A DNA stretch of 33,821 nucleotides from the NCBI GenBank assembly GCA_030066715.1, contig JASJBC010000045.1, positions 1 through 33,821 on the forward strand, read 5' to 3'. Positions 6,801 to 22,011 of this stretch are shown here, one piece after another. The DNA comes from Acidimicrobiia bacterium. Its GTDB lineage: Bacteria > Actinomycetota > Acidimicrobiia > Spongiisociales > UBA5794. Positions within the stretch are counted from its first letter, which is position 1. Each line of letters begins with the position of its first letter. Below the pieces are notes generated by a model. The model was given only the letters and a program-made list of their open reading frames with translations, did no database searches and was not told the origin of the DNA. Both the position numbers and the translations under genes were made by a program.

Positions 6801-7111
6801 CAGGGAACCTCAGACGAGGTCCGATTCGTGCGCCGGGCCAGCCAGAAGATGCCGTAGCCGATGGCAAGGGTCAGCAGCGTGCCGACCAGACCGGCAACCG
6901 CAGTGTTGACTCCGTCGTTGTCGGACAGGTTCTCGCCGTAGTCGGCGAGCGGCGAATCGGCCAGGCCGTGATCGGTGGCGCTCTCGGCAAAGCCCTCCTG
7001 CTCGGCTACAAACTCGAGGCCGTCAGGGTTCGATGAGGCAAACTGGGCGACCACCATCGCCACGAGAATGGCAACGACGAGACCAACGAGGAAGAGGCGC
7101 CGGTCCTTCAC
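6800..7111 (-). CDS. cbiN: Small 2-TM ECF transporter subunit (CbiN/NikN-type)
   Basis: 103 aa with N- and C-terminal TM helices flanking an acidic extracytoplasmic loop bearing NPDGLEF (compare CbiN GSDGEAE). GTG start overlapping the cbiM stop (GTGA). Position between M and Q is canonical for cbiMNQO/nikMNQO. Confidence 0.65.
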   Translation of the reverse strand: MKDRRLFLVGLVVAILVAMVVAQFASSNPDGLEFVAEQEGFAESATDHGLADSPLADYGENLSDNDGVNTAVAGLVGTLLTLAIGYGIFWLARRTNRTSSEVP

Positions 7112-7782
7112 GTGAGCACCTCTGTGCGCTGTCCGGCATAGTCGGGTGCGCCGTAGACGAGGTCGGGGCGGCTACGCACAACCGCACCGACTACCAGCGC
7201 GGTGATGACTCCTTCTCCTATGCCAATGAGCAAGTGGGTTCCGAGGAGGGCGGTGAACACCGTGCCGGTAGCCACGGTCGTGGTCCCCCCGATGATGTAC
7301 TGCAGCAGGAAGCCCATTGCGGAAAGCGGGACGGCGATTCCTGCGGCGATACCGGCAGCGAGAGTGACCCCGCGCCCGTCCTTGGGCATAACCCGCAGCA
7401 ACATGCGGTAGATGGCATAGCCACCAACGGCGCCGATGAAGCCCATGTTGAAGATGTTCAGACCGAGGGCACTCAGACCGCCGTCGGCAAAGACCATCCC
7501 CTGCACGATGAGCACGACCGAGAGCACGACAAAGGCTGCCCACGGGCCAATCAAGACTGCCGCCAGGACGCCACCGAGAAGGTGGCCACTAACGCCGATA
7601 GAGACAGGGAAGTTGACCATCTGCGCCGCAAAGACGAATGCGGCTACCAGACCGGCAAGCGGCACCTGCCGTTCGCTCAGGTACCTGCCGGTCTGTTTGA
7701 TGGCGGCACCGAGCCCGCCTGCGGCAGCTACGCCGAAGCCGGCGGAGGTCGCTCCGTTGATGAATCCGTCCGGTATGTGCAC
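7108..7782 (-). CDS. cbiM: ECF transporter substrate-specific component CbiM/NikM (Co2+/Ni2+ uptake)
   Basis: N-terminus (M)HIPDGF is the hallmark metal-binding terminus of CbiM/NikM. 7 TM helices. GTG start at 7780-7782, preceded by GGAGAGGGA RBS. First gene of a four-gene operon with overlapping junctions. Confidence 0.85.
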   Translation of the reverse strand: MHIPDGFINGATSAGFGVAAAGGLGAAIKQTGRYLSERQVPLAGLVAAFVFAAQMVNFPVSIGVSGHLLGGVLAAVLIGPWAAFVVLSVVLIVQGMVFADGGLSALGLNIFNMGFIGAVGGYAIYRMLLRVMPKDGRGVTLAAGIAAGIAVPLSAMGFLLQYIIGGTTTVATGTVFTALLGTHLLIGIGEGVITALVVGAVVRSRPDLVYGAPDYAGQRTEVLT

Positions 7783-7794
7783 CCGTCCCTCTCC

Positions 7795-7817
7795 TTATTG
7801 CGAACGCTTCGCAATAA
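7795..7817. promoter_or_regulatory. AT-rich palindromic operator (Nur/Fur-family-box-like) immediately upstream of cbiM
   Basis: TTATTGCGAA-cgc-TTCGCAATAA, perfect 10-bp inverted arms, 12 nt upstream of the cbiM RBS. Core TTGCGA-N5-TCGCAA matches the 6-5-6 architecture of the Streptomyces Nur box (tTGCaa-N5-ttGCAA). It is the most AT-rich spot in a 70-bp intergenic region. A Fur-family regulator gene lies 1.8 kb upstream on the same strand. Confidence 0.5.
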
Positions 7818-7853
7818 CATAGCGAGTCGAACGGGCCGCCTGCGACGCTTTGG

Positions 7854-9572
7854 CTATCGAGTGACCGGAATTGAGGGGAGGACGAGCCGGAAGACCGACT
7901 CTCCCTGCTCATACTCGTAGGTCAAATCCCCGTGCATGATCACGGCCAGCGACTTGGCGACGGTGAGGCCGAGACCGACGGATTCCGGCTGGCTCTGCAC
8001 GTCCTTCCGCGTTCGCGCATACGGCTGGAACATCGTGTCGCGTTGTCGAGACGGGATCGGAGGACCGTCGTCGCGGACTTCGACGACGGCACAGTCGCCG
8101 CTGCTGAAGGCAACGACACGCCGGCTGCCTCCGCCGTAGCGAACCGCATTGGTCGCAAGGTTGCGGATGACCTGCCGCACACGGCTCGGATCTGCGTAGG
8201 CCATCAGATCATCCTCGAGGTCCCAGCTGAACCCGTCATCCACCGTGGCGAGAGTTGTCGCCACCGTTTCCGCCAAATCGAAGGTGTGTGGCAGCACGGA
8301 GAGATTCCCGCCGGCGGCGCGGGCGGCGACCAGGAGGTCCTCCACGATGTCCGCCACGTCGTGGCTCTGTTCGGCCACGATGCCGAGCAACTCGTCACGC
8401 TCGGTCGCCGGGATGGAGGCGTCGGGCCGGGTGATCTCGTCGACGAGGCCGACGACGGCAGTCAACGGAGTGCGCAACTCGTGGCTCACGGTCGCGATGA
8501 ACTCGTCCTTGTAGCGAATCTGGTCGGCGAGGGCCAGCTCCGCCGTCTTCTGCGCCGTGATATCGGTGGAGATCAGGACGACCTTCCGTCGGTCTTCGCT
8601 CCCAGTGTTCCAGTTCATGACCTGGTGGTATGTGGCACCGTCGGCTTCGAAGGAGAGCTCAACCGAGCCCTGGCCACCCTCGAAGACGATGCGAGCCAGC
8701 ACGTCGGTGATGATCTGAGCATCGGCCCGTCGCATGGCCGTGACGTCCTCGCCGCCGCGGGCGAGAAAGAGGTCGCTGCCCGCCGTCTCGTTGAAGCCGA
8801 CCACGCGGATATGGGGGAGAAGGGTGATCGGGTCGATCTGCCCGCCTGCGATTCCTCTCTCGTAGTCGCGGAGAGTGCGGCAACCCTCGTCGAGGAGGAA
8901 GCTGCGCAACTCACGCAGGTCGAGCTCGACCACACCGACGGGGGCGGTTTCCATCAACCGCTCGTACTCAGCACGGCTTTGCTGGCCCGCGGTGCGGATC
9001 GCGATCGCAGCTGCAAAGGCCAACGTGGCAATGATCAGCGTTGTTGCTGTGTCGGTGAAGACCTGGGCCACCGAGTGGGTGACGGTCCAGCGCACGATGC
9101 TCACCGCGGCGACGAGCAGCATGACCCAGAATGCGGCCACCCTGGGCACCCATTTGCCTCCCAGGCTCAGGCCGAGCACGCCGGTCAGCGCAATGATCAC
9201 GGTGGGTGACGCATCGGTGAGCCGAACGAAGTCCTCGTCGATTGCACCGCCCACGATGGACACGAGGCCGGCGAGTGCGGCGATCACCAGGATGGTTCGC
9301 GGGTAGGCGCGGCGAGTCCGATCCATCCACAGCGCAAGCAGGGCCAGCAGCGTTGCCGCAACGAACTGCAGTCCCGACTCGGGAGTGCGGAGGCGGACCA
9401 GATCCATCAAGCCGATGAACGCAAGACATGCCGCGGCCAGCAGCAGCACGCGCACCATCCCGAGTTCGGCGCGGTCGGCAGTGCCCTGGAAGCCGCTGCC
9501 GACCCAGGTCTTGATCCGTGTCATCCATTCGGGCATATCGTTATCTATCGGCAATCTCGCCGTTAGGTACAC
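7854..9572 (-). CDS. Membrane-bound sensor histidine kinase (no cognate response regulator in window)
   Basis: 572 aa. N-terminal block of about 6 TM helices, then a central PAS-like region. HisKA H-box FIATVSHELRTPLTAVVGL. HATPase_c N/G1/G2 boxes (IRNLATNAVRYGG…DDGPPIP…GLGLTVAK). Confidence 0.8.
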   Translation of the reverse strand: MYLTARLPIDNDMPEWMTRIKTWVGSGFQGTADRAELGMVRVLLLAAACLAFIGLMDLVRLRTPESGLQFVAATLLALLALWMDRTRRAYPRTILVIAALAGLVSIVGGAIDEDFVRLTDASPTVIIALTGVLGLSLGGKWVPRVAAFWVMLLVAAVSIVRWTVTHSVAQVFTDTATTLIIATLAFAAAIAIRTAGQQSRAEYERLMETAPVGVVELDLRELRSFLLDEGCRTLRDYERGIAGGQIDPITLLPHIRVVGFNETAGSDLFLARGGEDVTAMRRADAQIITDVLARIVFEGGQGSVELSFEADGATYHQVMNWNTGSEDRRKVVLISTDITAQKTAELALADQIRYKDEFIATVSHELRTPLTAVVGLVDEITRPDASIPATERDELLGIVAEQSHDVADIVEDLLVAARAAGGNLSVLPHTFDLAETVATTLATVDDGFSWDLEDDLMAYADPSRVRQVIRNLATNAVRYGGGSRRVVAFSSGDCAVVEVRDDGPPIPSRQRDTMFQPYARTRKDVQSQPESVGLGLTVAKSLAVIMHGDLTYEYEQGESVFRLVLPSIPVTR

Positions 9573-9587
9573 CGATAAGTGCGGCGG

Positions 9588-10028
9588 TCAGGTGTCGGTT
9601 GTGGCGCAGTCGGGGCAGGTGCCGGTTATCGCAAAGTGCGTGGGGTCCACCTCGAATCCGGTGGTCTCCTGGAGCTGCGTGAGCCACTCGGAGAGGCCTG
9701 CCGCCGGCACTGCAGCGGTCGTTCCGCAGCGGTTGCAGACGACGTGCTGATGCGTTGCTTCAGACGCCAAGTGATAGACAGCCGCGCCATGCCCCAGATG
9801 ACTGTGGACGAGGAGGCCCGCCTCTTCGAGCGCGTCGAGGGTGCGGTAGACGGTCGATTGATCGGCACGTGCTGCCGGATCGGCTTGCACTTCTTCGAGT
9901 ATGGAAGCGGCGGTGAGGTGTTCGCTGTGCCGGCGCGCCACGATCGAGCAGACGGCACGGCGCGCCTCCGTGATCCGGAGACCCTGGTTGCGTAGGGCAT
10001 TGATGAGCGTCTCGGAGTCGATGTGCAT
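9588..10028 (-). CDS. Fur-family metalloregulator (Fur/Zur/Nur-like)
   Basis: 146 aa. N-terminal winged-helix DNA-binding region with LRITEARRAV. His-rich metal site HSHLGHG…HQHVVCNRCG, and a second CxxC (TGTCPDC) forming the structural Cys4 site. Classic Fur-family layout. Confidence 0.8.
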   Translation of the reverse strand: MHIDSETLINALRNQGLRITEARRAVCSIVARRHSEHLTAASILEEVQADPAARADQSTVYRTLDALEEAGLLVHSHLGHGAAVYHLASEATHQHVVCNRCGTTAAVPAAGLSEWLTQLQETTGFEVDPTHFAITGTCPDCATTDT

Positions 10029-10035: not shown

Positions 10036-11988
10036 CTACCGTAGGCGAGCCCGGCCCGGCATGAAGACCATGGTCAACGTCCGCCTCATGATTCTCGTGT
10101 CGAGCGCCATCGAGCGCTTTGCGACGTACTCCTCGTCGTAGCGGGTCCGCTCCGTCGCTGATATCTCATCCCGTCCCGATACTTGAGCCAGACCCGTCAC
10201 CCCTGGTTTCACGGTGAAGCGGATGCTGTCCCGGCCGATGATGTCGGCCTCGGCCGGCACCAGGGGACGGGGACCAACGAGGGACATGCGGCCGAGCAGA
10301 ACATCCCATAGGTTGGGAAGCTCATCGAGCGACAATCGGCGCAGCACCTTGCCCACCTTGGTGATCCTGGGGTCGTCGGCAATGCGAATGGTGGCGGTCT
10401 CGTTGTTCATCATCGCCTCTTCGAGCTGGGCCAGGTGCTGGGCAAAGAGCTCCTCGCCCCCGTCGGCGCGCATGGTACGGATCTTCAGCATGGCGAAGTT
10501 GCCTCCGTCCTTGCCCACTCGCTCCTGGCGGAAGAAGGCCGGTCCCGGCGAATCCAGCTTCACGGCGACGACGCAGACGACCAGGACGGGAAGAGAGAGC
10601 ACGAGCACGACGGCCGACACGGCGATGTCCACAGTGCGCTTGGCCAGCAGATATGCGGCGCCCGGAGCGCGGTCCGCCGCAGTTGGTCTGCTGATGGCTC
10701 CGATCGCGAGAGCTGCCAGCGCCACCGCCTCGCCGGCGATGAAGGACGTGGCCACACGCTGGAACGGATCACCGTTGGACAAGGCCAAGGCGATGACGGC
10801 AGCCGCAAGGCCGATCAGCCAGGAGATGCCGAGCACCCTGGGCTTGCCCTGGGCCACGAGAACCTGAGCAACGAACAGCCCCGACCCGGCGAGGACTACC
10901 CCGGCGGCGACGAGGGCGGCGGGCATCGCCTCGGGCCGGAACTCCGCTCCAAAGGCGACGTCCACAACCCAGGGCCCGACGAAGTAGCCGGCAAGGGAGC
11001 CGAGTACGGCCAGGCCGAGGCCGGCGAAGCCGATGCCGCGCGCCCATGCAGCAAGTTCCCTGCGCTCTTGGCGGGCGGCCATCTCGGTGAACGGCGGGAG
11101 GACGCGGGCAATGAGGTTGTAGCCGAAGGTGAGCGGGGCACGAAAGAGAGTGAACGTGGCGAAGACGACGCTGATCAGGGCCTGAGTGGCCCCGAGCATT
11201 GCCGCAACCACCGGACCGGCCAGCAGCAGTGCCTGCGACGCCGCCGAGGAGAGGACGAGGCCGCCGAGGAGCCCTTGGTCACCGACTGTCGCTGCGTCCT
11301 TCGCCGTTATGGCCTGCCGATCGACCGCAACTCTGCGGAACGGCCGCCACACCAAGGTGATGATCGGCCCGACAATGAGTGCGATCGCCAGCCCGGACGC
11401 CGAGGGACGCAGGGTGAGAACGAGGATCGCCACCAGCAGCCGCAGCAGGTTGGCGCCGCCGCTCGCATATCCGTACTCCCGGAAGCGTCTCCAGCCTGCC
11501 AGGTGACCACGTGCCGCCGCATAGCCGGCGTGCATCGCAACAGTCAACGCCGTGAAGGCGATGAACCGGCGGTCACCGTTGAGGAATCGATCGACACCGA
11601 GCCAGGCGAAGAGGGTTGCCGCAGCAACGGTGCCGCCGGCGAGCCACCAAGCCGTGCGAGGCAACCCGGAGCGCTCGGGATCGAGGGTGAGGCGCCGCAC
11701 CACGAGTTGCTCAACGGGCAAGAGGAACACAATGAAGGTGAGGAAGTGGATCGTCAGCAAGACGGACACGGGCGCAAACGCAGTTGCTCCCAAGGTCCGA
11801 CCGCCGATGATCTGGTAGGCATAGGCGGCAAGCCCGGCCAGGAGGCTGCCGGCCAGGATGTGTCCTGTGCCGTCCTCCGACAACCGCGCAAAACGGGTCC
11901 GGGTCGATCCGGCTTCCTGTTGGGGTATGGGATCCGAAGGGTCTTCCAGCATATCCAGTGTGACGGGCGCGTCGCCTGTCCACACCAT
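10036..11988 (-). CDS. Fusion protein: N-terminal polytopic flippase-like (MOP/Wzx-like) membrane domain plus C-terminal bacterial sugar transferase (Bac_transf, undecaprenyl-phosphate phosphoglycosyl transferase) domain
   Basis: 650 aa. Residues about 40-440 form roughly 10-12 TM helices, Gly/Ala-rich. Residues about 450-650 carry a single TM followed by the Bac_transf signature (…DELPNLWDVLLGRMSLVGPRP…KPGVTGLAQVSGR…). The PGT domain call is high confidence. The identity of the N-terminal domain (flippase-like) is inferred from topology only. Confidence 0.75.
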   Translation of the reverse strand: MVWTGDAPVTLDMLEDPSDPIPQQEAGSTRTRFARLSEDGTGHILAGSLLAGLAAYAYQIIGGRTLGATAFAPVSVLLTIHFLTFIVFLLPVEQLVVRRLTLDPERSGLPRTAWWLAGGTVAAATLFAWLGVDRFLNGDRRFIAFTALTVAMHAGYAAARGHLAGWRRFREYGYASGGANLLRLLVAILVLTLRPSASGLAIALIVGPIITLVWRPFRRVAVDRQAITAKDAATVGDQGLLGGLVLSSAASQALLLAGPVVAAMLGATQALISVVFATFTLFRAPLTFGYNLIARVLPPFTEMAARQERRELAAWARGIGFAGLGLAVLGSLAGYFVGPWVVDVAFGAEFRPEAMPAALVAAGVVLAGSGLFVAQVLVAQGKPRVLGISWLIGLAAAVIALALSNGDPFQRVATSFIAGEAVALAALAIGAISRPTAADRAPGAAYLLAKRTVDIAVSAVVLVLSLPVLVVCVVAVKLDSPGPAFFRQERVGKDGGNFAMLKIRTMRADGGEELFAQHLAQLEEAMMNNETATIRIADDPRITKVGKVLRRLSLDELPNLWDVLLGRMSLVGPRPLVPAEADIIGRDSIRFTVKPGVTGLAQVSGRDEISATERTRYDEEYVAKRSMALDTRIMRRTLTMVFMPGRARLR

Positions 11989-12013: not shown

Positions 12014-13453
12014 ATGCAGACAACCGGTAAGTTGGGGTCGCAGAAGCGTCCAGTCGGCGCTGCCCTTCTGTCCGCGGTTCTCCCCGGAGCCGGGCAGTGG
12101 TACGCAGGCCACCGTCGTCGCGCCTTGGTTCTTCTCGGCGTCGACCTCTTGCTCATCGTTCTGGCTGGGCTCGCCTACTTCAACCAGCTCGAGGTGGTCA
12201 AGGCTGCGTTCCGGCCGGATGTTCTCGTCGGGGCCATGCTGGGCAACATCGCACTTCTTGCCTTCCGGCTCTGGGCTGCGGACGACGCCTACCGGCTTGC
12301 CGCACAGTCGGGGCGCGGCCGGTTCACGCCTCTCGCCGGTGTCGTCCTCGGGCTACTCATCCTCGGCCCCCATCTGGTCGCCGGCTACTACGACATCGTG
12401 CATTACGACTTCATCACCACGACATTTGCCCAGGACGAGGTCACAACTACAACCACCACGACCACCACCACCTCTGCACCTGCCGGCGTTGCTTCCGGGA
12501 CCAGCGCCTCCAGCGGGTCGACGACGACTACAACCGAGGCCGTCGCAGTCGAGCCCGGGCCCGTCCTGTGGGACGGTCTGGAGCGCCTCAACATCGCTCT
12601 GCTCGGTGCCGACGCCGGGGTGGGCAGAAGATCCATCAGAACGGACACGATGATCGTCGTCAGCATCGATCCGGAAAGCGGCAATGTCGCTTTATTCAGC
12701 CTGCCGCGCAACATGGTGGAGGCGCCGCTGCCGGTGGAGATGGGCATCTGGGGCTGCGACTGCTTCCCCCGCATGCTCAACGACCTATATGTAGCGGGGA
12801 TCGAATCTCCTGAGGCCTTCCCGGGTCCGCAGGATCCGAGTGTCAACGCCATAAAGGGCGGGTTCGGCGAGATTCTCGGCATTCCGATCCACTATTACGC
12901 CATGGTGACGCTGGAGGGGTTCGTTGGCGTCATCGATGCCATCGGCGGGGTCACGATCGATGTTCCGTTCCGAATCGTCGACGAAACATACCCGCATGAG
13001 GATGGCGTCACGATCGAGTATGTCGAGATCGAGCCTGGCGTCCAGCAGCTCGACGGTCATCTCGCCTTGGCGTACTCGCGGGCCCGCCGCCACGCCGACG
13101 ACTACGCACGGATGGGGCGGCAGCGTTGTGTTCTGAACGCCATCCTCGAGGAAGCGGACCCAGTGGCTCTCGCCCTCGGCTACCCCGAGCTTGCCGGCGT
13201 TCTCGGCGACACCATGGAGACGGACATCCCGCTGAGCCGCATCCCCGATTTCATCGATCTCCTTCCCAAGATCGACCAGGAGAACATGATCTCGATCCGG
13301 TTCATTCCGCCGGATTACATCACGGCTTCAACATCGTCAGGGAACATCCCCGACGTTGATCTCATCCGGGAACACGTGCAGATCGTCATCAACTCGACTC
13401 CCGACGAGGCGCGCACCATCCTCGGGATCGATTCGCTCGACGACAACTGCTAG
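12014..13453 (+). CDS. LytR-CpsA-Psr (LCP) family cell-wall glycopolymer ligase, with N-terminal TM region and poly-Thr linker
   Basis: 479 aa. N-terminal 4 TM helices. A T10/Ser/Thr-rich linker. LCP core motifs LNIALLGADAG…RTDTMIVVSID (conserved Arg/Asp) and downstream GF.G.IDA.GGV. Divergent from the flippase-PGT gene, with only about 25 bp between the annotated starts. Confidence 0.8.
   Translation: MQTTGKLGSQKRPVGAALLSAVLPGAGQWYAGHRRRALVLLGVDLLLIVLAGLAYFNQLEVVKAAFRPDVLVGAMLGNIALLAFRLWAADDAYRLAAQSGRGRFTPLAGVVLGLLILGPHLVAGYYDIVHYDFITTTFAQDEVTTTTTTTTTTSAPAGVASGTSASSGSTTTTTEAVAVEPGPVLWDGLERLNIALLGADAGVGRRSIRTDTMIVVSIDPESGNVALFSLPRNMVEAPLPVEMGIWGCDCFPRMLNDLYVAGIESPEAFPGPQDPSVNAIKGGFGEILGIPIHYYAMVTLEGFVGVIDAIGGVTIDVPFRIVDETYPHEDGVTIEYVEIEPGVQQLDGHLALAYSRARRHADDYARMGRQRCVLNAILEEADPVALALGYPELAGVLGDTMETDIPLSRIPDFIDLLPKIDQENMISIRFIPPDYITASTSSGNIPDVDLIREHVQIVINSTPDEARTILGIDSLDDNC
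12443..12472 (+). repeat. Simple-sequence tract encoding poly-threonine (T10) inside the LCP gene
   Basis: aca act aca acc acc acg acc acc acc acc. It codes TTTTTTTTTT, followed by a Ser/Thr/Gly/Ala-rich linker that includes a second TTTTT run. Confidence 0.7.
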
Positions 13454-14724
13454 TCAGTCTCGGCGGGCTGCTCCGCAGGTCGGTGGGCGAGACCGGAGAG
13501 GATGTTCACGCCGGTGGCGTTCTCGATTTGCTCGGTGAGCTTGATGACGGAACCCGGAAGCTGGCTGAGCAGCCCGGGGATCTGCTGACTCCCGTTGCCC
13601 CCATCGATGACCGAGACCTTGTCGATGCTGACGGATTTGACCGTGCTGACGATCTTGTCGATCAGCTCCGGAAGCATGTTGAGGACGAAGATCTGCTCGG
13701 CCTCCGTGCCTGCGGCGTGGTACTGCTCGACCAGACGCCGGAACACCTCGATCTGCGCCTGGCCGTCCTCGATGATCGAGGCTGCCTCACCCTTGGCCTC
13801 GAGTTCCATTGCCTCGCGCCTGGCCCGGGCCGGGGCGATGACGTCGGCCTCGAGCCTGCGGTTCTGCAGCTCGATTCGGGCCGCTTCGAGCTCCTGTTCG
13901 GCCACGACCCTGGCTCGGTCGGCCTCGACCTTGGCCTCCTCTTCCTTGGCGGCGGCGATCTTCTCCAGCTCGGCGGTCCGTACCCGCAGCTCGTTTTGGC
14001 GTTCGACCACTGCGAGATCGGCTTGAACGCGGGCGATCTCGGCCCGTTTCCGGGCTTCGGCTTCCTCTTCTTCGGCTTCGGTATGCCGTTGCGCCTCAGC
14101 GATGCGCGCTTCCTTGAGCACGGCCGCCGTCTGGCGGCGCCCCACTGAGTCGAGATAACCGACCTCATCGGTCACGTTCTGGATCTTGAGCACGTCCAGT
14201 TCGAGCCCCAACGTCTTGATGTCGTCGTCGGCCTCTTCGATGAGAGTCTGCGCAAACTTGAGACGGTCCTCGTTGACCTCCTCCGGTGTCAGCGTTGCGA
14301 GCACACCACGCAGGTTCGCCTCGAGGGTCTCCTTGGCGAGCTGGGGGATGTACTCAGGAGGACGACCGAGGAAGCGCTCCACTGAGTTCTCGAGCAGCCC
14401 CTCACGGCTGGACAGCTTCACGTTGGCAATTCCCTGGACGTTGAGCGGGATCGCCCCTTTCGAGTAAGCGTTCGTGACCGCAACCTCGATTGCGATCGTG
14501 TTGAGATCCATGAACTGGACCTTTTCGATGATGGGCCAGCGCAGGGTCCGCCCCCCGCGCAGCACGCGGTAGCCGATGACGGTTCCGGCGGTGAGCTCTC
14601 TGGTGCGCCCGGTGATCACGGCGATCTGGTTTGGCGGGCAGATCACGATGAACGCTTTGACCGCGAGAGTTACGACGATGATCGCCAGGATTACTAGGCC
14701 GGCAATAGTGACGAGGATTTCCAT
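13450..14724 (-). CDS. Flotillin-like SPFH/Band-7 family protein (FloT/YqiK-like)
   Basis: Start chosen at ATG 14722-14724 (MEILVTIAGLVILAIIVV…), preceded by AAAGGAG RBS. The upstream extension in the six-frame ORF is rejected. N-terminal TM. SPFH domain. Long EA-rich coiled-coil (flotillin repeats: AEAQRHTEAEEEEAEARKRAE…). C-terminal flotillin tail. Confidence 0.8.
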   Translation of the reverse strand: MEILVTIAGLVILAIIVVTLAVKAFIVICPPNQIAVITGRTRELTAGTVIGYRVLRGGRTLRWPIIEKVQFMDLNTIAIEVAVTNAYSKGAIPLNVQGIANVKLSSREGLLENSVERFLGRPPEYIPQLAKETLEANLRGVLATLTPEEVNEDRLKFAQTLIEEADDDIKTLGLELDVLKIQNVTDEVGYLDSVGRRQTAAVLKEARIAEAQRHTEAEEEEAEARKRAEIARVQADLAVVERQNELRVRTAELEKIAAAKEEEAKVEADRARVVAEQELEAARIELQNRRLEADVIAPARARREAMELEAKGEAASIIEDGQAQIEVFRRLVEQYHAAGTEAEQIFVLNMLPELIDKIVSTVKSVSIDKVSVIDGGNGSQQIPGLLSQLPGSVIKLTEQIENATGVNILSGLAHRPAEQPAETD

Positions 14725-14758
14725 CCCGACTCCTTTTCCGGGCGGGTGCCCGGGTACT

Positions 14759-15334
14759 TCAGTCCAATTGATCCATGGGGGTGACGAGGGCGGAGCCGTT
14801 CTTGACTTCGACGATGACGACCGTGTCACCTACCGAATAGTCGTGCTCATGCCTCTCGTTGTACGGTGCGGCGACGAGGTAGAGGCGTTGACCGTCCACG
14901 TCGACCGAAACCTTGCCGCGTTTCCCGGCGACGATGGGGACGACGACCTGCGCCGCATTGCCTTCGATGTTGCTGTCCCTCAGCTGGCTGCTCACGCTCG
15001 TGGTCTTGAGATACTGCATCAAGCGAACGTTGATGAAGGCCGCGAAGACGCCGACAGCGATGGCGAAGCCGAGGGCGGCAGCGGTGCCGGCGTTGAGCCA
15101 GGTCAACAGGACTCCGGTGAGACCGAAGAATGCGGCGAGGAATACCAGCGACCGCAGCGAAAAGATCGCACCGAGCATCTGCAGTCCAGAGCTCGAGACG
15201 TCGAGACCGCCGTCGGCGTCGAGGTCGATATCGGCGTCCACACCGAAGTCCACGTCGAGGTCGGCCGCGGAGAAGAGGAAGACGGCCACGAGAATCCACC
15301 CAATGACCGCCGCGAAGACGAAGACGGTGAACAT
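14759..15334 (-). CDS. NfeD-like membrane protein (YqiJ/YuaF-type partner of flotillin)
   Basis: 191 aa. N-terminal TM helices. Acidic DLDVDFGVDADIDLDADGG segment. C-terminal OB-fold-like beta region (GDTVVIVEVKNGSALV). Located directly upstream of the flotillin gene, the conserved nfeD-floT operon arrangement. Confidence 0.7.
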   Translation of the reverse strand: MFTVFVFAAVIGWILVAVFLFSAADLDVDFGVDADIDLDADGGLDVSSSGLQMLGAIFSLRSLVFLAAFFGLTGVLLTWLNAGTAAALGFAIAVGVFAAFINVRLMQYLKTTSVSSQLRDSNIEGNAAQVVVPIVAGKRGKVSVDVDGQRLYLVAAPYNERHEHDYSVGDTVVIVEVKNGSALVTPMDQLD

Positions 15335-15451
15335 TGCGGCAGCTCCGTTTCAGATCGGCCCTTTTCCGTATTCTACAAAGCAGAAGGTTTACGTTTTAGG
15401 GTCGATCGGCAGATTCGCGGCGGGTGCCCGAGGGACCTGGAGGAGTAGATC

Positions 15452-16228
15452 GTGGAGACTGGACTGGCCGGAAAAGGGGTTCTAGTCACCGGAGGTGCCG
15501 GTGGTATCGGCTCCGCAGTTGTGCGCGCTTTTGCGGCTGAGGGGGCAAGAGTCGCAGTTCACTACAACACGTCGGAGAAGGCAGCAGAGGCGCTTGCTGC
15601 GGAGGTCGCCGGTGTCGCCATCGGGGCCGATCTGCGCAACGAAGCCGATGCCGACGTGCTGGTACCGAAGGCCGTCGCTGCGTTGGGACGTCTCGACGTC
15701 TGTGTTGCCAACGCCGGGCGGTGGCCGCAGCAGGACGAGCCGATCTGGAGGCTATCTCTCGAGAGGTGGAACGAGACTCTGGCCGCCAACCTCACGTCCA
15801 CGTTTCTCACCGCCCGGGGGTTCCTGGAGCATGTGGCGATGACCGGTTCGGGATCGCTCGTCATGATCGCCTCCACTGCCGGCACCTTTGGTGAAGCCGG
15901 CCATGCCGACTACGCCGCAGCCAAGGGCGCGATATCGAGCGGCCTGCTGATGAGCGCAAAGAACGAAGCCGCTCGAATCGGGCCGGGAGTCCGGGTCAAC
16001 GTCGTCGCTCCCGGCTGGACCGTCACCCCGGCCGTGATGGCCCGTGGCCTCAGCGAGGATCACTTCGATCGGGCAACGGCAACGATGTCGCTCAAGAAGC
16101 TGGGCCGGCCCGAGGATGTCGCCGCTCAGGTCGTCGTGCTTGCCTCGGACGAACTCTCCGGCCACATCTCGGGTGAGGTAATCACCGTCGCAGGAGGGAT
16201 GGAAGGACGCCTGATCGACGGCGCTTAA
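15452..16228 (+). CDS. Short-chain dehydrogenase/reductase (SDR) family oxidoreductase
   Basis: Rossmann motif VLVTGGAGGIGSAV. NAG motif VANAG. Catalytic S…YAAAKGA (YxxxK). 258 aa. Confidence 0.85.
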   Translation: METGLAGKGVLVTGGAGGIGSAVVRAFAAEGARVAVHYNTSEKAAEALAAEVAGVAIGADLRNEADADVLVPKAVAALGRLDVCVANAGRWPQQDEPIWRLSLERWNETLAANLTSTFLTARGFLEHVAMTGSGSLVMIASTAGTFGEAGHADYAAAKGAISSGLLMSAKNEAARIGPGVRVNVVAPGWTVTPAVMARGLSEDHFDRATATMSLKKLGRPEDVAAQVVVLASDELSGHISGEVITVAGGMEGRLIDGA

Positions 16229-17223
16229 CCCTCCGGGAACGGTGTTCCTGCGATGAAGGCGTCGATGACGCCGGCGGCGTCGGGCTCGATGGGAATGACG
16301 TACTCCCGGCCATCCTCACGGTGGTTCGTGACCGGCAGTGTCATGGTGTGGATCTGGCCGGAATCAAGCGAAAGTGCCGCCCGACCCAGCTCGACCATCA
16401 CATTGACCGAGAAGCCGGCGTCGGCGGTGATCTGCTCGGCAAAGGTCGAGGCAAAACCGGGGAGATTGAAGGCCGCCGACTTGGACGTCGCCTTGTCGAA
16501 CATCAGCAGCAGTACCTCCTGCTGGCGGTGGGTGCGCCCGATGTCGCTGCCGTCGACGGTCTTCCAGGAGCCGTCGATCAGCTCCTGATAGTTGCGGGAA
16601 CGGGCGTACTGGAGTGCGGTCATGCCGTCCATCTCCATCGTCCCTGCATCGACGTCGAGCCCTGACTTGGTGTCGCGAGCCGGGTTGTCGAAGGTCTTGG
16701 TGATGCCGCCGAGCGAGTCGACCACGTTGGCGAATCCGACGAAGTCGATCTCGACGTAGTGGTGGATGGGTATGCCGAGGTTGTTCTGGATGGTCTGGAC
16801 CAGCAGGTCGGGGCCACCGAAGACGAATGCGGCGTTGATGCGGTTGGTGTCGTGACCCGGGATCTCCATCCGCAGGTCGCGAGGAAGGCTGAGCAGCTGT
16901 GCCCCTTCGCCCGGCACGATGTGGGCCACCATGATCACGTCGGTGCGCGACCCGCCGAAGTTGCCGAAGTCCTCGAGATCGTTGAGACCCTCGCGGCTGT
17001 CGGATCCGACGATCAGGATGTTGCGCACCCCGTTGTCCTGGATCTCGGCCTCTAGCGATGGCAACTCCTCGTCCGGGATCTTCTCGATCTTGGAGTCGAT
17101 GAAGTAGATGAAGCCGATGGCGCCGAACACGGCCACAACGGCGGTGATCAGCACACCGAGCAGCAGCTTCTTGGGAGTGCTCATTCGCGGGCGAGCCGGC
17201 ACGGATGGAGGTTGGGTGGTCAA
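16225..17223 (-). CDS. LytR-CpsA-Psr (LCP) family protein (second copy)
   Basis: 332 aa. N-terminal TM (LLLGVLITAVVAVFGAIGFIYFI). LCP core NILIVGSDSREG…RTDVIMVAHI…LSLPRDL…GGPDLLVQTIQNNLGIPIHHYVEIDFVGF. The start may be the internal MSTPKK. Confidence 0.8.
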   Translation of the reverse strand: MTTQPPSVPARPRMSTPKKLLLGVLITAVVAVFGAIGFIYFIDSKIEKIPDEELPSLEAEIQDNGVRNILIVGSDSREGLNDLEDFGNFGGSRTDVIMVAHIVPGEGAQLLSLPRDLRMEIPGHDTNRINAAFVFGGPDLLVQTIQNNLGIPIHHYVEIDFVGFANVVDSLGGITKTFDNPARDTKSGLDVDAGTMEMDGMTALQYARSRNYQELIDGSWKTVDGSDIGRTHRQQEVLLLMFDKATSKSAAFNLPGFASTFAEQITADAGFSVNVMVELGRAALSLDSGQIHTMTLPVTNHREDGREYVIPIEPDAAGVIDAFIAGTPFPEG

Positions 17224-17343
17224 GAGAGCCTCGCAGCGAAGTCGGGGTAGGGCTGCAGCGGGCAGTGTAACGAACCTGGGGAATAGCGGATCGGCCTGCT
17301 CAGCGGTGGGGGGTGTGTTCCGGGAGGTCGGCCCATGCGCCCG

Positions 17344-17895
17344 TCACGTGAGGTCGGCGGTCATAACGACATCGGCGAACTCGCCGTGGAGGTTGGCAGC
17401 GGTCATTCTGGCTACTTCGTCGGCAGGAATGGTCTCGCCGTTGATGTCGACCTGATCGAAAGCTCGTGTTGCGTCCAAGACGAAGATGGTTTCATAGCCG
17501 AGGTTGCCGGCCATCCGGGCTGTCGTCTCGCAGCAATGGTTGGTGGTTATGCCTGCAATGGCGACTCCGGTGATTCCACGATGCCGCAACCAGGCATCGA
17601 GGTCCGGTTCTCCGTAGAAGGCCGAGTTGACGTTCTTGGTAACCAACAGGTCCGGTTCTCCCGCGAGCTCAGGCTTGAGCGCGTTGCCCGGTTGGTTGGG
17701 GCGCAGTGGAGACTCCGGCAGCACGGAATCGTGGCGGACAAAGACAACCGGACGCTTCGCACGCCTCCATGCCGCAATCAGCTTTGCGATATTGGCCTCA
17801 GCGTCGGGATTGTTGCCCGGGCCCCAATAAGAGTCGTCGAATCCCGTCTGCACGTCGACGACGAGGAGAGCGGTGGCGTTGAGATCGTGGACCAT
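17344..17895 (-). CDS. Isochorismatase-family cysteine hydrolase
   Basis: 183 aa. LLVVDVQ.GF N-terminal motif (catalytic Asp). Conserved K (VTKN) and catalytic Cys in GITTNHCCETTAR. Typical isochorismatase/CSHase fold signature. Confidence 0.8.
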   Translation of the reverse strand: MVHDLNATALLVVDVQTGFDDSYWGPGNNPDAEANIAKLIAAWRRAKRPVVFVRHDSVLPESPLRPNQPGNALKPELAGEPDLLVTKNVNSAFYGEPDLDAWLRHRGITGVAIAGITTNHCCETTARMAGNLGYETIFVLDATRAFDQVDINGETIPADEVARMTAANLHGEFADVVMTADLT

Positions 17896-17960
17896 GGCGG
17901 TGATGCTACCGGCGGCGAGTGTGGGGAGCCCCGTGCGGCGCCCAGCTCGAGTTCCTCGTG

Positions 17961-19013
17961 TCAGCTGGGGACTGGTCTTGCGTCGAGCCAGCGGATCCCC
18001 GCAAGCACCCGACCGCTGTAGTCGTTCCGCAGTGCGAGTTTCCGGCCCGCGTCCGGTGGAGTCCTGACGGCACCCGCCCAGCCGATCATCCCCCGGATCT
18101 GTATGCGGAGTGCCAGCGCCGCGGTCCGGGTTATCTCGTCGAGGCCCGCATCTACGCCGTAGCGCTGTAGCGATGACGCGTATCTTGCGAGAAGTTGGTC
18201 GGGATCGATCGGAGCGTCGTTGCGGAAGGCAAGGCTGACCAAGAGCACTGCGACGTCAACCGCAGGCGGCCCGATCGCTGCGCCCGACCAGTCGAGCAGT
18301 ACCGGACTGCCGTCGGCTCGCCACAGTATGTTGTCGAGGTGCGGGTCTCGATGCACCCACGACGCCGGCCCGAGCGCCAACACCTGAATCGCGGCGGTTG
18401 CCTCGTCGCTGCAGGCGGCCAGTCGTTCGACGATTTGCGCTGTGTAGTGATCCGGATATCGCTCGCGGGCCTTCTCGAGACGGTTGCTCCACCGTTCCGG
18501 TGCCCAGGCGGCAGCGGACCATCGGTCGAGTTCGATAGGGGCATCGGAAGCGGCGTCAAACCAGGTGGTGGCGTGGAGGCGGGCGACGATGTCGATCAGG
18601 TCTAGGGCTTGGGCAAGTGTGCAGCCGGCCAGGTCGTCGCCTTGCGTGGCTTGCGGGATGTCCTCCAAGAGGATCACTCCCTGGCCCTGGGAGTCGAGGT
18701 ACGACCCGTATGAGGCCGGAATCACGCCGGCGAGCAGTCGCTCGTTGTGAGCCCGGAAGGTGACGGCGCGCCGTATCTCGTCCTCAGCTTCGATCTTGGC
18801 TACGAGCGTCGGGGTGGCCCCGGCAATGGTCGGGGCGAAGAGCCGGTAGACGCGACCGCTGAGACCGAACTCGCCGCCGATCCGCTCGCCCCGCACCGAC
18901 GCCACTGTCCCGTCGGTCCAGACACGTGAGCGTTCGAGCTGGGTGTTCAGCCAATCGACGTCGAACTCGTTGCCGTCGCTGGGAAATCGCATGGGTGGAG
19001 TCTGGTCGCGCAC
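17961..19013 (-). CDS. Phosphotransferase (APH/choline-kinase-like) family protein
   Basis: 350 aa. Brenner motif VHRDPHLDNILW (HxDxxxxN) and downstream DW (LLDWSGAAIGPPAVD), characteristic of PF01636 aminoglycoside/small-molecule kinases. Substrate unknown. Confidence 0.7.
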   Translation of the reverse strand: MRDQTPPMRFPSDGNEFDVDWLNTQLERSRVWTDGTVASVRGERIGGEFGLSGRVYRLFAPTIAGATPTLVAKIEAEDEIRRAVTFRAHNERLLAGVIPASYGSYLDSQGQGVILLEDIPQATQGDDLAGCTLAQALDLIDIVARLHATTWFDAASDAPIELDRWSAAAWAPERWSNRLEKARERYPDHYTAQIVERLAACSDEATAAIQVLALGPASWVHRDPHLDNILWRADGSPVLLDWSGAAIGPPAVDVAVLLVSLAFRNDAPIDPDQLLARYASSLQRYGVDAGLDEITRTAALALRIQIRGMIGWAGAVRTPPDAGRKLALRNDYSGRVLAGIRWLDARPVPS

Positions 19014-19060
19014 CGGTCACCATGCGAGCGGGGACGCGGAGGTGCTGCTCAAGGCCCATG

Positions 19061-19090
19061 CGGCCATCTTCCCGACGTATCCTTCCAGAT
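19061..19090. repeat. Copy 1 of a 30-35-bp dispersed direct repeat (GCGGCCATCTTCCCGACGTATCCTTCCAGAT)
   Basis: Identical at all but 2 positions to copy 2 (20209-20240), and closely similar to copy 3 (20897-20925). Lies in the 98-bp gap between the HEPN stop and the phosphotransferase start, at the boundary where GC content drops. Confidence 0.55.
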
Positions 19091-19111
19091 CTAGGTGGTT
19101 CATTGAGGGAG

Positions 19112-19516
19112 TCAGGCCTGGGCTGCCAGTTCAAGGAGACGCTGCATGGCGCGGATTGCTCGTTTCGCTTCTGTCACCGTTGGGTCGGTTTGCTCGTACT
19201 GCGCCTTGTTCTTTGCGGACAGCAGAGTCGCTAGCTCCCTTCTCGCAGACGTCCCAAGGTCGCCCGCCTGGCCGAGCAGGTCCAAGGCCTGTTGATGGTC
19301 ACTTCCGGCAGCGCGCTGTCCAAGGCGTCGACAGCAGATCGCGTCGGCAGCGGCGATGCCGGCCAGCACGGCATTGCTAACCGCTGCCGACCTCGCTGGC
19401 CCGTCTGATGCGAAGGGATCCAATTCGGCTAGTTCGGCGAACGCTTTGGCCTGTTGATGCCTCTGCGCACCGTCTTGCCGATCGCAACGCCTGGTACGGG
19501 ACGTCTTCTTGGCCAT
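19112..19516 (-). CDS. Putative HEPN-domain protein (toxin partner of the upstream nucleotidyltransferase)
   Basis: 134 aa, all-helical, with conserved-looking R/H positions. Its start overlaps the stop of the upstream wHTH-NTase gene by 1 nt, the classic MNT-HEPN operon order. No canonical Rx4-6H motif is obvious, so the family call is tentative. Confidence 0.5.
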   Translation of the reverse strand: MAKKTSRTRRCDRQDGAQRHQQAKAFAELAELDPFASDGPARSAAVSNAVLAGIAAADAICCRRLGQRAAGSDHQQALDLLGQAGDLGTSARRELATLLSAKNKAQYEQTDPTVTEAKRAIRAMQRLLELAAQA

Positions 19517-20106
19517 CAGGTGTTGTCCGTCGCCACGAGGTCGATACGTTCCGCTTCGATGCTGGCAAAGAGGCTCGGAGATGTTTCTGCTAATCGCTCG
19601 AACTCACTCGTCGTGTAGTGAAGCAGGTTGCATTCGTTGCCTGTCAGCCGGTTGATCCGCGGCGCAATGTCCTGCTCTCGCTCCCTCGAGGATGCGTCGT
19701 CACTCCAGACGAGCACGATGTCGATGTCGCTCTCCTCGTTGGCCGAGTTGGTTGCGAGGGATCCAAAGAGGATTGCCTGCCGAACTGTTGGAGCTTCCTC
19801 GACAATGATTGCTCCCATAGCGTCCAGAAGCTGTCTCCTCAGATCCACGATCTGTAGCACGAACGGCGCGAGTATGTGTTCTCTGTTCAAGGTGTTGAGC
19901 ACAGCGTTACCTGCTGTGACCTGGGTAACCAAGCCGTGTGCCGCAAGTTCGTCCAGAGCGTTCTGCACGCCCTGCTGGCTCACTCTTCGGTGGGCGAGTC
20001 GCATGACTTCACGCCCAGACAAGGGCTTGGTTGTACCCGCGAGGACCTCAAGTACTCGACCGGCGAGACTCGGGATGAGCGAGGTAAGGGGATGGCGGAG
20101 GTTCAT
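19516..20106 (-). CDS. wHTH-fused minimal nucleotidyltransferase (MNT/MntA-like antitoxin)
   Basis: 196 aa. N-terminal winged-helix (…LSGREVMRLAHRRVSQQGVQNALDELAAHGLV…). Polymerase-beta-type NTase motif ILFGSLATNSANEESDIDIVLV (GS-x9-13-DxD). GC about 55%, versus about 68% in flanking genes. Confidence 0.7.
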   Translation of the reverse strand: MNLRHPLTSLIPSLAGRVLEVLAGTTKPLSGREVMRLAHRRVSQQGVQNALDELAAHGLVTQVTAGNAVLNTLNREHILAPFVLQIVDLRRQLLDAMGAIIVEEAPTVRQAILFGSLATNSANEESDIDIVLVWSDDASSREREQDIAPRINRLTGNECNLLHYTTSEFERLAETSPSLFASIEAERIDLVATDNT

Positions 20107-20153
20107 ATGCCAAGCATAGTTGGCATATGACCATTTGAATAGGCATTTGCCAA
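20104..20153. promoter_or_regulatory. Cluster of TTGGCA/TGCCAA inverted half-sites overlapping the MNT start codon (candidate autoregulatory TA operator)
   Basis: CATATGCCAA-gcatag-TTGGCATATG is a perfect 10-bp inverted repeat that includes the ATG. A third site …GGCATTTGCCAA follows 20 nt further upstream, preceded by TTGACT-like -35 sequence on the minus strand. Confidence 0.35.
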
Positions 20154-20208
20154 CTCAGCTAGTCAATCTACTGCCAGGAACGTCGGCTACCACACCTCGG
20201 CGCCCGTG

Positions 20209-20240
20209 CCGCCATCTTCCCGACATATCCTTCCGGATTG
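20209..20240. repeat. Copy 2 of the dispersed direct repeat (GCCGCCATCTTCCCGACATATCCTTCCGGATT)
   Basis: See copy 1. Located between the TA module and the zinc-ribbon membrane protein gene. Confidence 0.55.
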
Positions 20241-20386
20241 CGGTGGTGGGATGAGGGCAGACGGGACGGGCAACTGACGCGTGGACCATTGCAGAGGGAG
20301 CCTTGTTCCTGGTGCGTCATTCTGATATGTCTGCAGTGGCAACTGTCGGGCTGCCACGCGGCTGGCAGACCCGGGGAAAGGACTTC

Positions 20387-20800
20387 ATGACTGATCCCGT
20401 TGTCGTGTGCTGGAGCTGCCACACCAATGTGGACGCGGGTCTTTCTGAGTGTCCTCGCTGCAGGGCAGGGCTAGGGCCTGAAGATCGTGGATTGAGCGTC
20501 GGGGACCACCAGAGTGAGCAAGAGCTCTTGAAGGCTAGGTCGGGGGTCGGCGATTCATCCGTAGCGAACCATGTAGGAACCGAGCGACCATTCGAGAAGA
20601 TAGTGATTGGTTGCATCATCGTCTTGCTGATGGTTGGTGGGGGCACGTTTCTCGGCATGTTGTTCGCGGGCTGGATAAGTGGTTGTGAATCCTTCGGTTG
20701 TCTTGCTCCCGCCGCGATTGGTGTGTTCCTCGGAGGTGCTGTTGGTCTTGTGTGGAGCATCACCATCCTGGTCCGCAGGAACTCCCGCCGAGCCAAGTAG
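20387..20800 (+). CDS. Small zinc-ribbon membrane protein (CxxC-x14-CxxC + 2 TM), function unknown
   Basis: Start chosen at ATG 20387 (MTDPVVVCWSCHTNVDAGLSECPRCRAGL…), preceded by GGAAAGGA RBS. C-terminal two hydrophobic helices (IVIGCIIVLLMVGGGTFLGMLFAGWI…AAIGVFLGGAVGLVWSITILV). Basic tail RRNSRRAK. GC about 57%. Confidence 0.5.
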   Translation: MTDPVVVCWSCHTNVDAGLSECPRCRAGLGPEDRGLSVGDHQSEQELLKARSGVGDSSVANHVGTERPFEKIVIGCIIVLLMVGGGTFLGMLFAGWISGCESFGCLAPAAIGVFLGGAVGLVWSITILVRRNSRRAK

Positions 20801-20896
20801 TGCCGGCGCCTGAGTTAGGCAGATGGTGGAAGCGGCGGTCTGTGCAACCGACGGCGGGTTTCCTGGATGAGAGTCTCCGGGTTCTCAAGCACCAGT

Positions 20897-20925
20897 GACC
20901 TTCCCGGCATATCCTTCCAGATTGG
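20897..20925. repeat. Copy 3 (more diverged) of the dispersed direct repeat (GACCTTCCCGGCATATCCTTCCAGATTGG)
   Basis: Shares the CTTCCCGRCRTATCCTTCCRGAT core with copies 1 and 2. Marks the right edge of the lower-GC segment. Confidence 0.45.
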
Positions 20926-21084
20926 GGTCGCGGTCTAGCGAGGTGTCCGCTCGCTGAAGCCGGATAATGAGCGCCGGTGGGTGCGCGATATCGCTCCCGG
21001 CCGTGAGTGCTTGGGTACCGGATCAAGCGCTAAGGACTGCGAGGTGGCCACGGCTCCGTTCCCGTGCGAGCCTGCGTAGCGCCG

Positions 21085-22005
21085 CTACTGGTCCTCATCC
21101 AGCTTGCTGAAGGCGGTTGCGACCCGCTCGAGAAACCACCGCACCCCTGGCTCGTCCCCTTCCGCCGCGCTGCGGAACAGCGAAAGCCCCATGGGGGGAA
21201 GGTCGAAGGGTATCTCGCGATGGTCGAGGTGAAAGGCGATCGCTGTGTTGCCTATGGCCACCGACGGCACGGTGAGCAACAGGTCCGTCTGGGCGAGTAT
21301 CGGCGCGGCCATAGAGAAGGTAGGAACCATGGCCCCTACTACACGGCGAATGCCGAGCTGAGAGGCCCGCCGGTCGATTGGGCTTCGCCCGCGAACGCCT
21401 GACGTGTGAACCCGCAGGTGGGGGTAGTCCGACCACGCCTCCGCGGACCAGTCGGCGAAGGCCGGGTGGCCTTCGCGGCCGTACACGGCCCAGGGCCAAG
21501 TCCCCAGCGGCTGACCACGTAGGTCCTCATCCCGGATGCCATCGGGCGCGATGAGGGCGTCGTAGCGGCCCTCGGCTAGCTCCCGAACCGCTGTTGCGGA
21601 GTAGGGCGCCAGCTCGACGCGGATCCCGGGTGCTGCATTCCTCACGTCCTGCAGCAGTGCCGGCACGAGTGAGGCGATGAAGTCGGGTGCAGCCAGACGG
21701 AACGTGCGGGTCGATGTGGTGGGTTCGAAGGGCTCCGGAGTCGCGATCGTGCGCGCCACTTGCTGGAGCACCCGGGGCAGTGTTTCCGCTAATCCCTCGG
21801 CGCGAACGGTTGGGCGCATGCGCCGCCCGTCCCGGAGTAACAGTTCGTCGTCGAACAGTTCGCGGAGGCGCTTGAGGGCGTGGCTGACGGCGGATGGGGT
21901 GAGGTCGAGCCTTTCCGCGGCACCGGTGACGCTTCGCTCCTCCAGCAACACATCGAGGACGACGAGCAGGTTGAGGTCAACCTCTCGTAATTGAATATCA
22001 TTCAT
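21085..22005 (-). CDS. LysR-family transcriptional regulator
   Basis: 306 aa. N-terminal HTH (…LNLLVVLDVLLEERSVTGAAERLDLTPSAVSHALKRLRE…). C-terminal periplasmic-binding-protein-like effector domain. Divergently arranged with a small membrane protein gene. Confidence 0.85.
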   Translation of the reverse strand: MNDIQLREVDLNLLVVLDVLLEERSVTGAAERLDLTPSAVSHALKRLRELFDDELLLRDGRRMRPTVRAEGLAETLPRVLQQVARTIATPEPFEPTTSTRTFRLAAPDFIASLVPALLQDVRNAAPGIRVELAPYSATAVRELAEGRYDALIAPDGIRDEDLRGQPLGTWPWAVYGREGHPAFADWSAEAWSDYPHLRVHTSGVRGRSPIDRRASQLGIRRVVGAMVPTFSMAAPILAQTDLLLTVPSVAIGNTAIAFHLDHREIPFDLPPMGLSLFRSAAEGDEPGVRWFLERVATAFSKLDEDQ

Positions 22006-22011
22006 ACTTTA

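Follow-up and report, generated by a model that had tools for sequence, protein, structure and literature searches.

Can the enzyme that begins a lipid-linked glycan and the transporter that carries its product across the membrane reside in a single polypeptide? The question is raised by a gene for a protein of 650 amino acids (aa) in the genome of an Acidimicrobiia bacterium (NCBI GenBank assembly GCA_030066715.1, contig JASJBC010000045.1, positions 1 to 33,821). The gene was studied within 34 kb of this genome with a GC content of 63-68%; this whole stretch of 33,821 nucleotides is referred to as the window. Little is understood of how lipid-linked sugars reach the flippase after their synthesis, since the flippase and the synthetic enzymes are separate membrane proteins of low abundance. 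The original prediction for the locus, made from the letters of the window, was that one polypeptide fuses a flippase-like membrane domain to a phosphoglycosyl transferase (PGT) of the Bac_transf family. The fusion is borne out by the 650-aa open reading frame (ORF), by Pfam and by structural models with 12 helices, and both motifs quoted with the prediction, DELPNLWDVLLGRMSLVGPRP and KPGVTGLAQVSGR, are found in the protein.

The fusion gene and its transferase domain

The fusion ORF has GC contents of 0.69/0.50/0.80 at the three codon positions, as in the genuine genes of the window. With the N-terminal domain (N-domain) alone as the query, 327 proteins were found; the best-matching 120 show 55-100% identity and are essentially all 600-672 aa long with PF02397, the sole exceptions being two truncated entries, and the named sources among these 120 are Acidimicrobiia or Actinomycetota metagenome-assembled genomes (MAGs). 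A survey of loci, with one genome per GTDB species, yielded 43 that encode the N-domain, all carried by Acidimicrobiia-type MAGs. The fusion ORF is uninterrupted in 37 of the 43; in two others the frame continues until the end of the contig, in one the contig stops short of the domain junction, one (L051) has a stand-alone N-domain gene, and two are interrupted.

The two interruptions are an in-frame stop within the MOP domain described below (L018:3974-5851) and a frameshift at the junction (L026:606-2568); pseudogenes, true fissions and sequencing errors are all possible explanations.

Such broken frames, together with split versions in which the two genes are adjacent or overlap (L006, L008), lend something to the view that a lost stop codon, or a frameshift introduced in sequencing or assembly, joined neighboring genes for a flippase and a small PGT. 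This view nevertheless has next to no probability, because the same ORF recurs across independent assemblies: 37 species-level assemblies have it intact, as do over 120 protein clusters drawn from NCBI, JGI, ENA and Logan. The length of the linker between the domains is conserved, and the full-length model is confident. The recurrence rules out an artefact, and a check for a frameshift separating two genes, which had been advised with the prediction, found none.

Bac_transf is the one domain that a Pfam scan finds in the fusion protein (PF02397, E 9e-58, 195.2 bits against a cut-off of 27), and the match covers profile positions 1-178 of 179. An alignment of 34 fused proteins shows no variation at K450, R451, D454, P467, D555, E556, P558, N559 and G572-P573-R574-P575. 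In Foldseek searches with the full-length predicted model, PglC is the top structural match of the transferase region (8g1n/8e37; E 1.4e-8, TMt 0.77-0.81, 33% identity), and the region of the re-entrant helix aligns to it; the catalytic domain of WbaP (8t53) also matches. The NCBIfam profiles for WbaP, WcaJ and EPS proteins align only from about position 254 on, with scores of 212, 196 and 241 bits under cut-offs of 403, 411 and 296; because only their C-terminal ~190 positions are matched, the protein has the catalytic core without the N-terminal module of the large PGTs. An ordinary WbaP/CpsE membrane domain, which the original prediction had marked as the point to check, is ruled out by profiles that are unmatched before that position and by the MOP fold predicted for the N-domain. 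Judged by its sequence and modeled structure, the C-terminal domain is an intact small monotopic PGT (monoPGT) of the PglC type, and it would transfer a sugar 1-phosphate to polyprenyl phosphate.

The number of transmembrane (TM) helices is even and lysine plus arginine residues number 25 inside vs 7 outside, which gives an N-in/C-in topology with a cytoplasmic transferase. In this topology the 17 residues of the linker that follows TM12 bring the re-entrant helix and the catalytic domain to the cytoplasmic face, the side on which a monotopic PGT has to act. Two structures were predicted, one of the N-domain alone (AlphaFold, pLDDT 77, pTM 0.76) and one of the full-length protein (AF2, pLDDT 83.7, pTM 0.83); the pTM of the latter suggests that the two domains pack in a defined way. 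In the full-length model pLDDT falls to about 68 in the linker, which is also the site of the stop and restart in split orthologues. WzxE has an arginine-rich C-terminal tail at its cytoplasmic entrance, which is proposed to recruit the pyrophosphate first (PMC11706664).

The N-terminal domain and its family

About 12 hydrophobic segments show up in the hydropathy profile of aa 41-435, and both AlphaFold models have exactly 12 long helices, arranged as 6+6, with a basic cytoplasmic loop (aa 215-239) between the two six-helix halves. With both models Foldseek returns a probability of 1.00 to MATE, MurJ and WzxE alike; the top target-normalized TM-scores, 0.59-0.64 with the full-length model, go to WzxE. 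The predicted structure therefore has the attributes of the MOP superfamily, namely 12 or 14 TM helices in two six-helix lobes and similarity of fold; prediction with AlphaFold, to see whether the N-domain has a MOP fold, had been proposed as a check. Matches of the N-domain to the MFS fold have low probability and TM-score. Wzy/O-antigen-ligase-like and GT-C folds were rejected as candidates, as no such structure is among the fold matches. Fold alone cannot separate Wzx from MATE, and evidence from sequence family and gene context was therefore weighed.

The protein does not reach the gathering thresholds of the Wzx/PST models (PF01943, PF13440, PF14667). Its first 445 residues, scanned alone, match nothing in Pfam at E<=10 and nothing in a profile search of PDB chain sequences, and NCBIfam gives no Wzx-type match for the whole protein. 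The profile searches recommended with the original prediction (PF01943, PF13440 and PF03023) thus turned out negative for the window protein and marginal for its relatives: among 42 relatives scanned, three weakly match PF01943 (best E 1.1e-3), one matches PF13440 (E 2.5e-4), and none matches the MatE or MurJ models. The family profile aligns with P0311 (hhalign 99.8%, E 5.5e-28), which itself spans positions 17-270 of 274 of PF01943 (E 1.2e-5, 25.3 bits against a cut-off of 28.2). A profile search of the wider family at E<=1e-3 gave 1,265 cluster representatives (50% identity), mostly stand-alone proteins of 400-450 aa.

Some stand-alone relatives carry source names (JGI/NCBI) such as 'O-antigen/teichoic acid export membrane protein' and 'lipopolysaccharide biosynthesis protein'. 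Three were placed in wall-glycopolymer clusters with GT2/GT4 glycosyltransferases (GTs), UDP-GlcNAc 2-epimerase (Epimerase_2), LytR-CpsA-Psr (LCP), Wzy_C and SLH; the clusters of stand-alone relatives also hold WecA/TagO-type Glycos_transf_4. The glycan-locus context characteristic of Wzx/PST is therefore present, with stand-alone forms in glycan clusters and fused or split forms beside PGT and LCP. The attributes of MurJ/MVF (14 TM helices, a TM13-14 lipid groove and a PF03023 match) were not found, nor were those of MATE (a PF01554 MatE match and a drug/cation antiport context).

Several residues within the helices are invariant or near-invariant: E93 and R98 in TM2, R160 in TM4 and R183 in TM5 and, in the second half, Q252 in TM7 and R283, N291 and R295 in TM8. 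R64, R98, R160, R283 and R295 are near-invariant in the wider family, and R183 is so in the fused forms. The cationic lumen of WzxE involves mainly TM1-2 and TM7-8 and is lined by conserved arginine pairs, R44/R239 and R143/R282 (PMC11706664). The best explanation of the models and sequence comparisons is that the N-domain belongs to a divergent Wzx-like family with the fold of MOP transporters; Wzx is preferred over MATE because of the family names, the weak PF01943 and PF13440 matches, the P0311 alignment and the glycan-cluster context.

Members of this MOP-like family are also joined, by fusion or through a 4-nt overlap, to a polysaccharide deacetylase (Polysacc_deac_1; L003:7018-9437 and protein P0262); the transporter family has therefore been linked to pathway enzymes more than once.

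Split orthologues, LCP genes and other neighbors

Comparison of fused with split orthologues had been suggested with the original prediction, and split orthologues exist in both gene orders. The MOP-like gene precedes the PGT gene in L006, where a new ORF begins 9 nt past the MOP-like stop and opens with the PGT helix motif (VYRAAKRVLDVV), and in L008, where the two ORFs overlap. The order is reversed in L007, in which a divergent LCP gene is followed by a 202-aa PGT and a 422-aa MOP-like gene; this LCP protein is 41% identical over its full length to LCP1, the LCP protein encoded beside the fusion gene of the window. In a neighbor-joining tree, which is rough and without support values, all fused forms and these split-adjacent forms share one crown clade, the split group L006/P0124/L008 is nested within the fused forms, and the relatives from big glycan clusters fall outside the crown clade. 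Adjacent split genes in both orders argue, as Rosetta-stone evidence drawn from sequence, for a functional coupling of the PGT and MOP domains.

The LCP1 gene is divergent from the fusion gene, with a gap of 25 bp; because this is too short for two promoters, one or both of the annotated starts may be too far upstream. LCP2 lies 4.2 kb from the fusion gene in a looser association than that of LCP1, and only among the closest relatives (L001, L010, L045) does its orthologue sit right next to LCP1. Two LCP genes had been said to flank the locus: both are present, but they lie on one side of it. The link to LCP is stronger than was proposed, with an LCP1-type gene divergently adjacent in 29 of the 35 loci that have enough upstream sequence and downstream-adjacent in three more; in four exceptions (L024, L025, L033, L046) the LCP position is held by an unrelated histidine kinase. 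Annotated contexts were examined for six loci, the window and L001, L002, L052, L053 and L054, whose fused proteins are roughly 46-77% identical to that of the window. LCP1 orthologues are present in these five relatives and in the split locus L007. Within 10 kb in the six contexts there is no GT, sugar-nucleotide, Wzy or Wzz gene; LCP is the only widely conserved neighbor besides the fusion or PGT-MOP pair, and the other neighbors vary.

In LCP1 itself the LCP domain is preceded by a membrane region at the N-terminus, ten consecutive threonines (12443-12472) and a further Ser/Thr-rich linker; the Thr/Ser-rich segment could be O-glycosylated or form an extended stalk.

On the other side, genes for a Fur-family regulator and a histidine kinase follow the fusion gene (Table 1). 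The three genes are probably one transcript, because they share a strand and the gaps between them are only 7 and 15 nt; a promoter and terminator scan of the region was uninformative at its high GC content. The Fur gene is kept in close relatives only (L001, L010, L045) and the histidine kinase has orthologues only in L009 and L010; both are lineage-restricted and are ruled out as conserved partners.

Table 1. Coordinates of the fusion gene, its predicted parts and neighboring genes in the window.
Feature	Position	Strand	Basis
Fusion gene, 650 aa; N-terminal MOP/Wzx-like 12-TM domain and C-terminal small monoPGT (predicted)	10036..11988	-	ORF
Predicted MOP-fold (Wzx-like) domain, aa 41-432, 12 TM helices, 6+6	10693..11868	-	models
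Cytoplasmic linker, aa 433-449 (SRPTAADRAPGAAYLLA), from TM12 to the re-entrant helix	10642..10692	-	sequence, model
Bac_transf (PF02397) catalytic domain, aa 450-642, PglC-like small monoPGT type	10063..10641	-	Pfam, Foldseek
Re-entrant membrane helix, aa 450-479, K450-R451-x-x-D454 and P467 kink	10552..10641	-	alignment of 34 fused proteins
Asp555-Glu556 catalytic dyad codons	10321..10326	-	translate to DE
LCP1, membrane-anchored LytR-CpsA-Psr phosphotransferase	12014..13453	+	PF03816, E 7.6e-26, 91.5 bits vs 24.6
LCP2, shorter LCP paralogue	16225..17223	-	PF03816, E 2.7e-36, 125.4 bits vs 24.6
Fur-family regulator	9588..10028	-	PF01475, E 4e-23; 7 nt downstream of fusion gene
Histidine kinase	7854..9572	-	HisKA and HATPase_c; 15 nt downstream of Fur

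Some further genes recur around the fused and split modules. A small CoA_binding_2 (PF13380) gene lies directly downstream of the module in 8 of the 43 species loci (L025:7868-8308, L012, L023, L024, L026, L033, L040 and L046) and on two further contigs (L007:3763-4215 and L054:12041-12442), and is absent from the window. A gene for a DUF2179/DUF5698 membrane protein recurs by the LCP genes (L002, L052, L053), and in one sub-lineage the fusion is repeatedly followed downstream by a pair of M20 peptidases and an Opp-type peptide ABC transporter; these M20, Opp and DUF2179 neighbors may relate to the turnover of cell-wall peptides.

Elsewhere in the window, positions 19000-23000 have a GC content of 0.57-0.60, compared with about 0.65, and contain an ORF with MarR-like winged-helix and nucleotidyltransferase regions (19516-20106) and an ORF without a Pfam match (20303-20800); this region could represent either a toxin-antitoxin-like element or a small acquired island. 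Three ORFs (7033-7920, 14576-15448 and 17335-18021, all on the plus strand) have a codon composition like that of genes yet match nothing in Pfam. The second of these overlaps the 5' end of an SPFH/flotillin gene (13450-14829, minus strand) by about 250 nt, and the start of one of the two is probably mis-set.

Proposed function and known systems

With somewhat better than even confidence, the fusion is read here as a bifunctional inner-membrane protein that makes a polyprenyl-pyrophosphate (PP)-sugar and flips the product for LCP-mediated attachment. The PGT domain would form the polyprenyl-PP-sugar at the cytoplasmic face, and TM12 and the 17-residue linker would put the site of this synthesis beside the cytoplasmic mouth of the transporter. 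The Wzx-like N-domain would translocate the polyprenyl-PP-linked product begun by its own transferase domain; the flipped species may be a monosaccharide or a glycan extended by enzymes encoded elsewhere. At the outer face, LCP1 would move the phospho-glycan from the lipid carrier to peptidoglycan or another wall acceptor, a step that would free polyprenyl phosphate. The analysis itself establishes what the two domains are, their predicted folds, the intact catalytic motifs, the topology, how widely the fusion is conserved, the split orthologues and the partnership with LCP; we infer the transferase activity and its sugar, whether and in which direction transport occurs, the acceptor, and how long the glycan is.

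The pathway may be a minimal one, with three activities and no GT: the N-domain would take the polyprenyl-PP-monosaccharide directly from the PGT active site, and the LCP protein would link just one sugar-phosphate to a wall protein or to peptidoglycan. This version is offered tentatively, at well below even odds. The original prediction had implied a minimal glycopolymer pathway, and the lack of any GT out to 10 kb in the six contexts strengthens the idea without proving it; taken with the LCP pairing, this lack suggests that wall decoration in Acidimicrobiia may follow a very short pathway. If true, the minimal pathway would be a natural case of covalent PGT-flippase hand-off, with a Wzx-type transporter acting on a one-sugar substrate.

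Several points weigh against the bifunctional reading. The window protein has no Wzx, MurJ or MATE sequence-model match even at E<=10, and the sole match of the family profile to PDB sequences is a spurious TM-segment match to FieF. The global TM-scores of the N-domain are moderate (0.4-0.64) and refer to a predicted structure, and its arginines were compared with the WzxE pairs at the level of helices only. All carriers of the family are uncultured MAGs, and the family is known from sequences and predicted structures. Canonical Wzx proteins are believed to favor repeat units that are complete; with GTs acting between the two steps, tethering the flippase to the initiating enzyme would bring no obvious kinetic gain.

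A rival reading is an ordinary Wzx-type pathway with a tethered initiator, which we give a real but minority chance. The transferase would prime the lipid carrier, GTs encoded elsewhere would assemble a complete repeat or linkage unit, the N-domain would flip the finished glycan only, and the fusion would serve co-localization or stoichiometry without defining a minimal pathway; this is a sub-case of the bifunctional reading that differs only in the length of the product. It is favored by the large clusters with several GTs in which stand-alone relatives of the N-domain sit, by the general handling of complete units by Wzx (established knowledge; PMC11706664), and by the extent of genome visible, 34 kb, since GT genes may lie elsewhere. 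It is disfavored by the six contexts, which lack GT, sugar-nucleotide, Wzy and Wzz genes out to 10 kb from the fusion, and by LCP being the only widely conserved neighbor. That the N-domain is not a flippase, and serves as an anchor, an oligomerization or regulatory scaffold like the 4-TM bundle of large PGTs, or a MATE-like exporter of small molecules whose fusion has unrelated causes, is improbable. Twelve helices, and invariant Arg, Gln, Asn and Glu residues within the membrane that are kept from 100% down to about 28% identity, are more than a mere anchor would require. A MATE-like exporter fits poorly with stand-alone relatives that lie in glycan clusters and not in drug-resistance contexts, and with weak Pfam matches that are to PF01943 and PF13440 and never to MatE. 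Any role other than that of a flippase has also to accommodate the synteny of PGT, MOP and LCP in fused and split forms alike.

A smaller chance still, bordering on negligible, attaches to recycling of the carrier, in which the MOP-like domain would bring polyprenyl phosphate back to the cytoplasmic leaflet, either by itself or in exchange for outgoing PP-sugar, and so feed the tethered transferase directly. The LCP reaction leaves polyprenyl phosphate outside, from where it must be flipped back, and the tight genetic link of PGT, MOP and LCP fits a closed carrier cycle; dedicated transporters of undecaprenyl phosphate (UndP) occur in other families (10.1101/2022.02.03.479048). Nothing in the sequence, however, separates import from export. 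The known recyclers of polyprenyl phosphate belong to the DedA and DUF368 families, and we know of no MOP protein that imports this carrier.

If the bifunctional reading holds, the single-chain PGT-flippase would be a natural 1:1 complex for structural and biochemical study of the hand-off. The fusion is conserved across a class of Actinomycetota, and split orthologues are at hand for comparison. The N-domain defines a large family outside Pfam, whose members are now annotated as 'sugar transferase' or hypothetical; its recognition would therefore improve the annotation of actinobacterial cell-wall loci. Acidimicrobiia are abundant and mostly uncultured, and their envelopes are essentially uncharacterized.

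No description of a PGT-flippase fusion was found in the searchable literature, which did not include the 2021 census of monoPGT fusions, so that an earlier mention is possible; censuses based on domains would miss the fusion because Pfam does not recognize the N-domain. The monoPGT field sorts its members into three groups, of which the small monoPGTs consist of the core only and the large ones of a 4-TM bundle, a nucleotide-binding-like domain and the core (PMC11626204, PMC10186338). The transferase domain resembles PglC of Campylobacter concisus (8g1n, 8e37) in its predicted fold and in sharing the PRP motif, the Asp-Glu dyad and a re-entrant helix that bears KRxxD and a proline kink; PglC is a catalytic core only, of about 200 aa, whereas the fusion adds a preceding 12-TM transporter-like domain. 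The large monoPGTs (WbaP, WcaJ, CpsE) have a homologous catalytic domain, but their four-helix TM bundle and nucleotide-binding-like domain are absent from the fusion protein, which leaves the first ~250 positions of their profiles unmatched and scores below the cut-offs. Bifunctional monoPGTs (Bi-PGT) likewise fuse a monoPGT core to another pathway function; the partner in the present fusion differs in being a polytopic transporter-fold domain unrecognized by Pfam.

On the transporter side, Wzx proteins (MOP superfamily, PST; E. coli WzxE 9g95, 9g9p) are among the nearest known counterparts of the N-domain; the similarity in sequence is below Pfam thresholds. Wzx proteins stand alone and WzxE ends in a free Arg-rich tail, whereas in the fusion the C-terminus continues into the initiating transferase. 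A parallel in layout is MprF, the aminoacyl-phosphatidylglycerol synthase-flippase, which also combines an N-terminal polytopic flippase and a C-terminal cytoplasmic synthase in one chain and thus both makes and translocates its lipid product (PMC8131360); the folds, the substrate (phospholipid vs polyprenyl-PP-sugar) and the chemistry are unrelated, and the likeness is one of function only.

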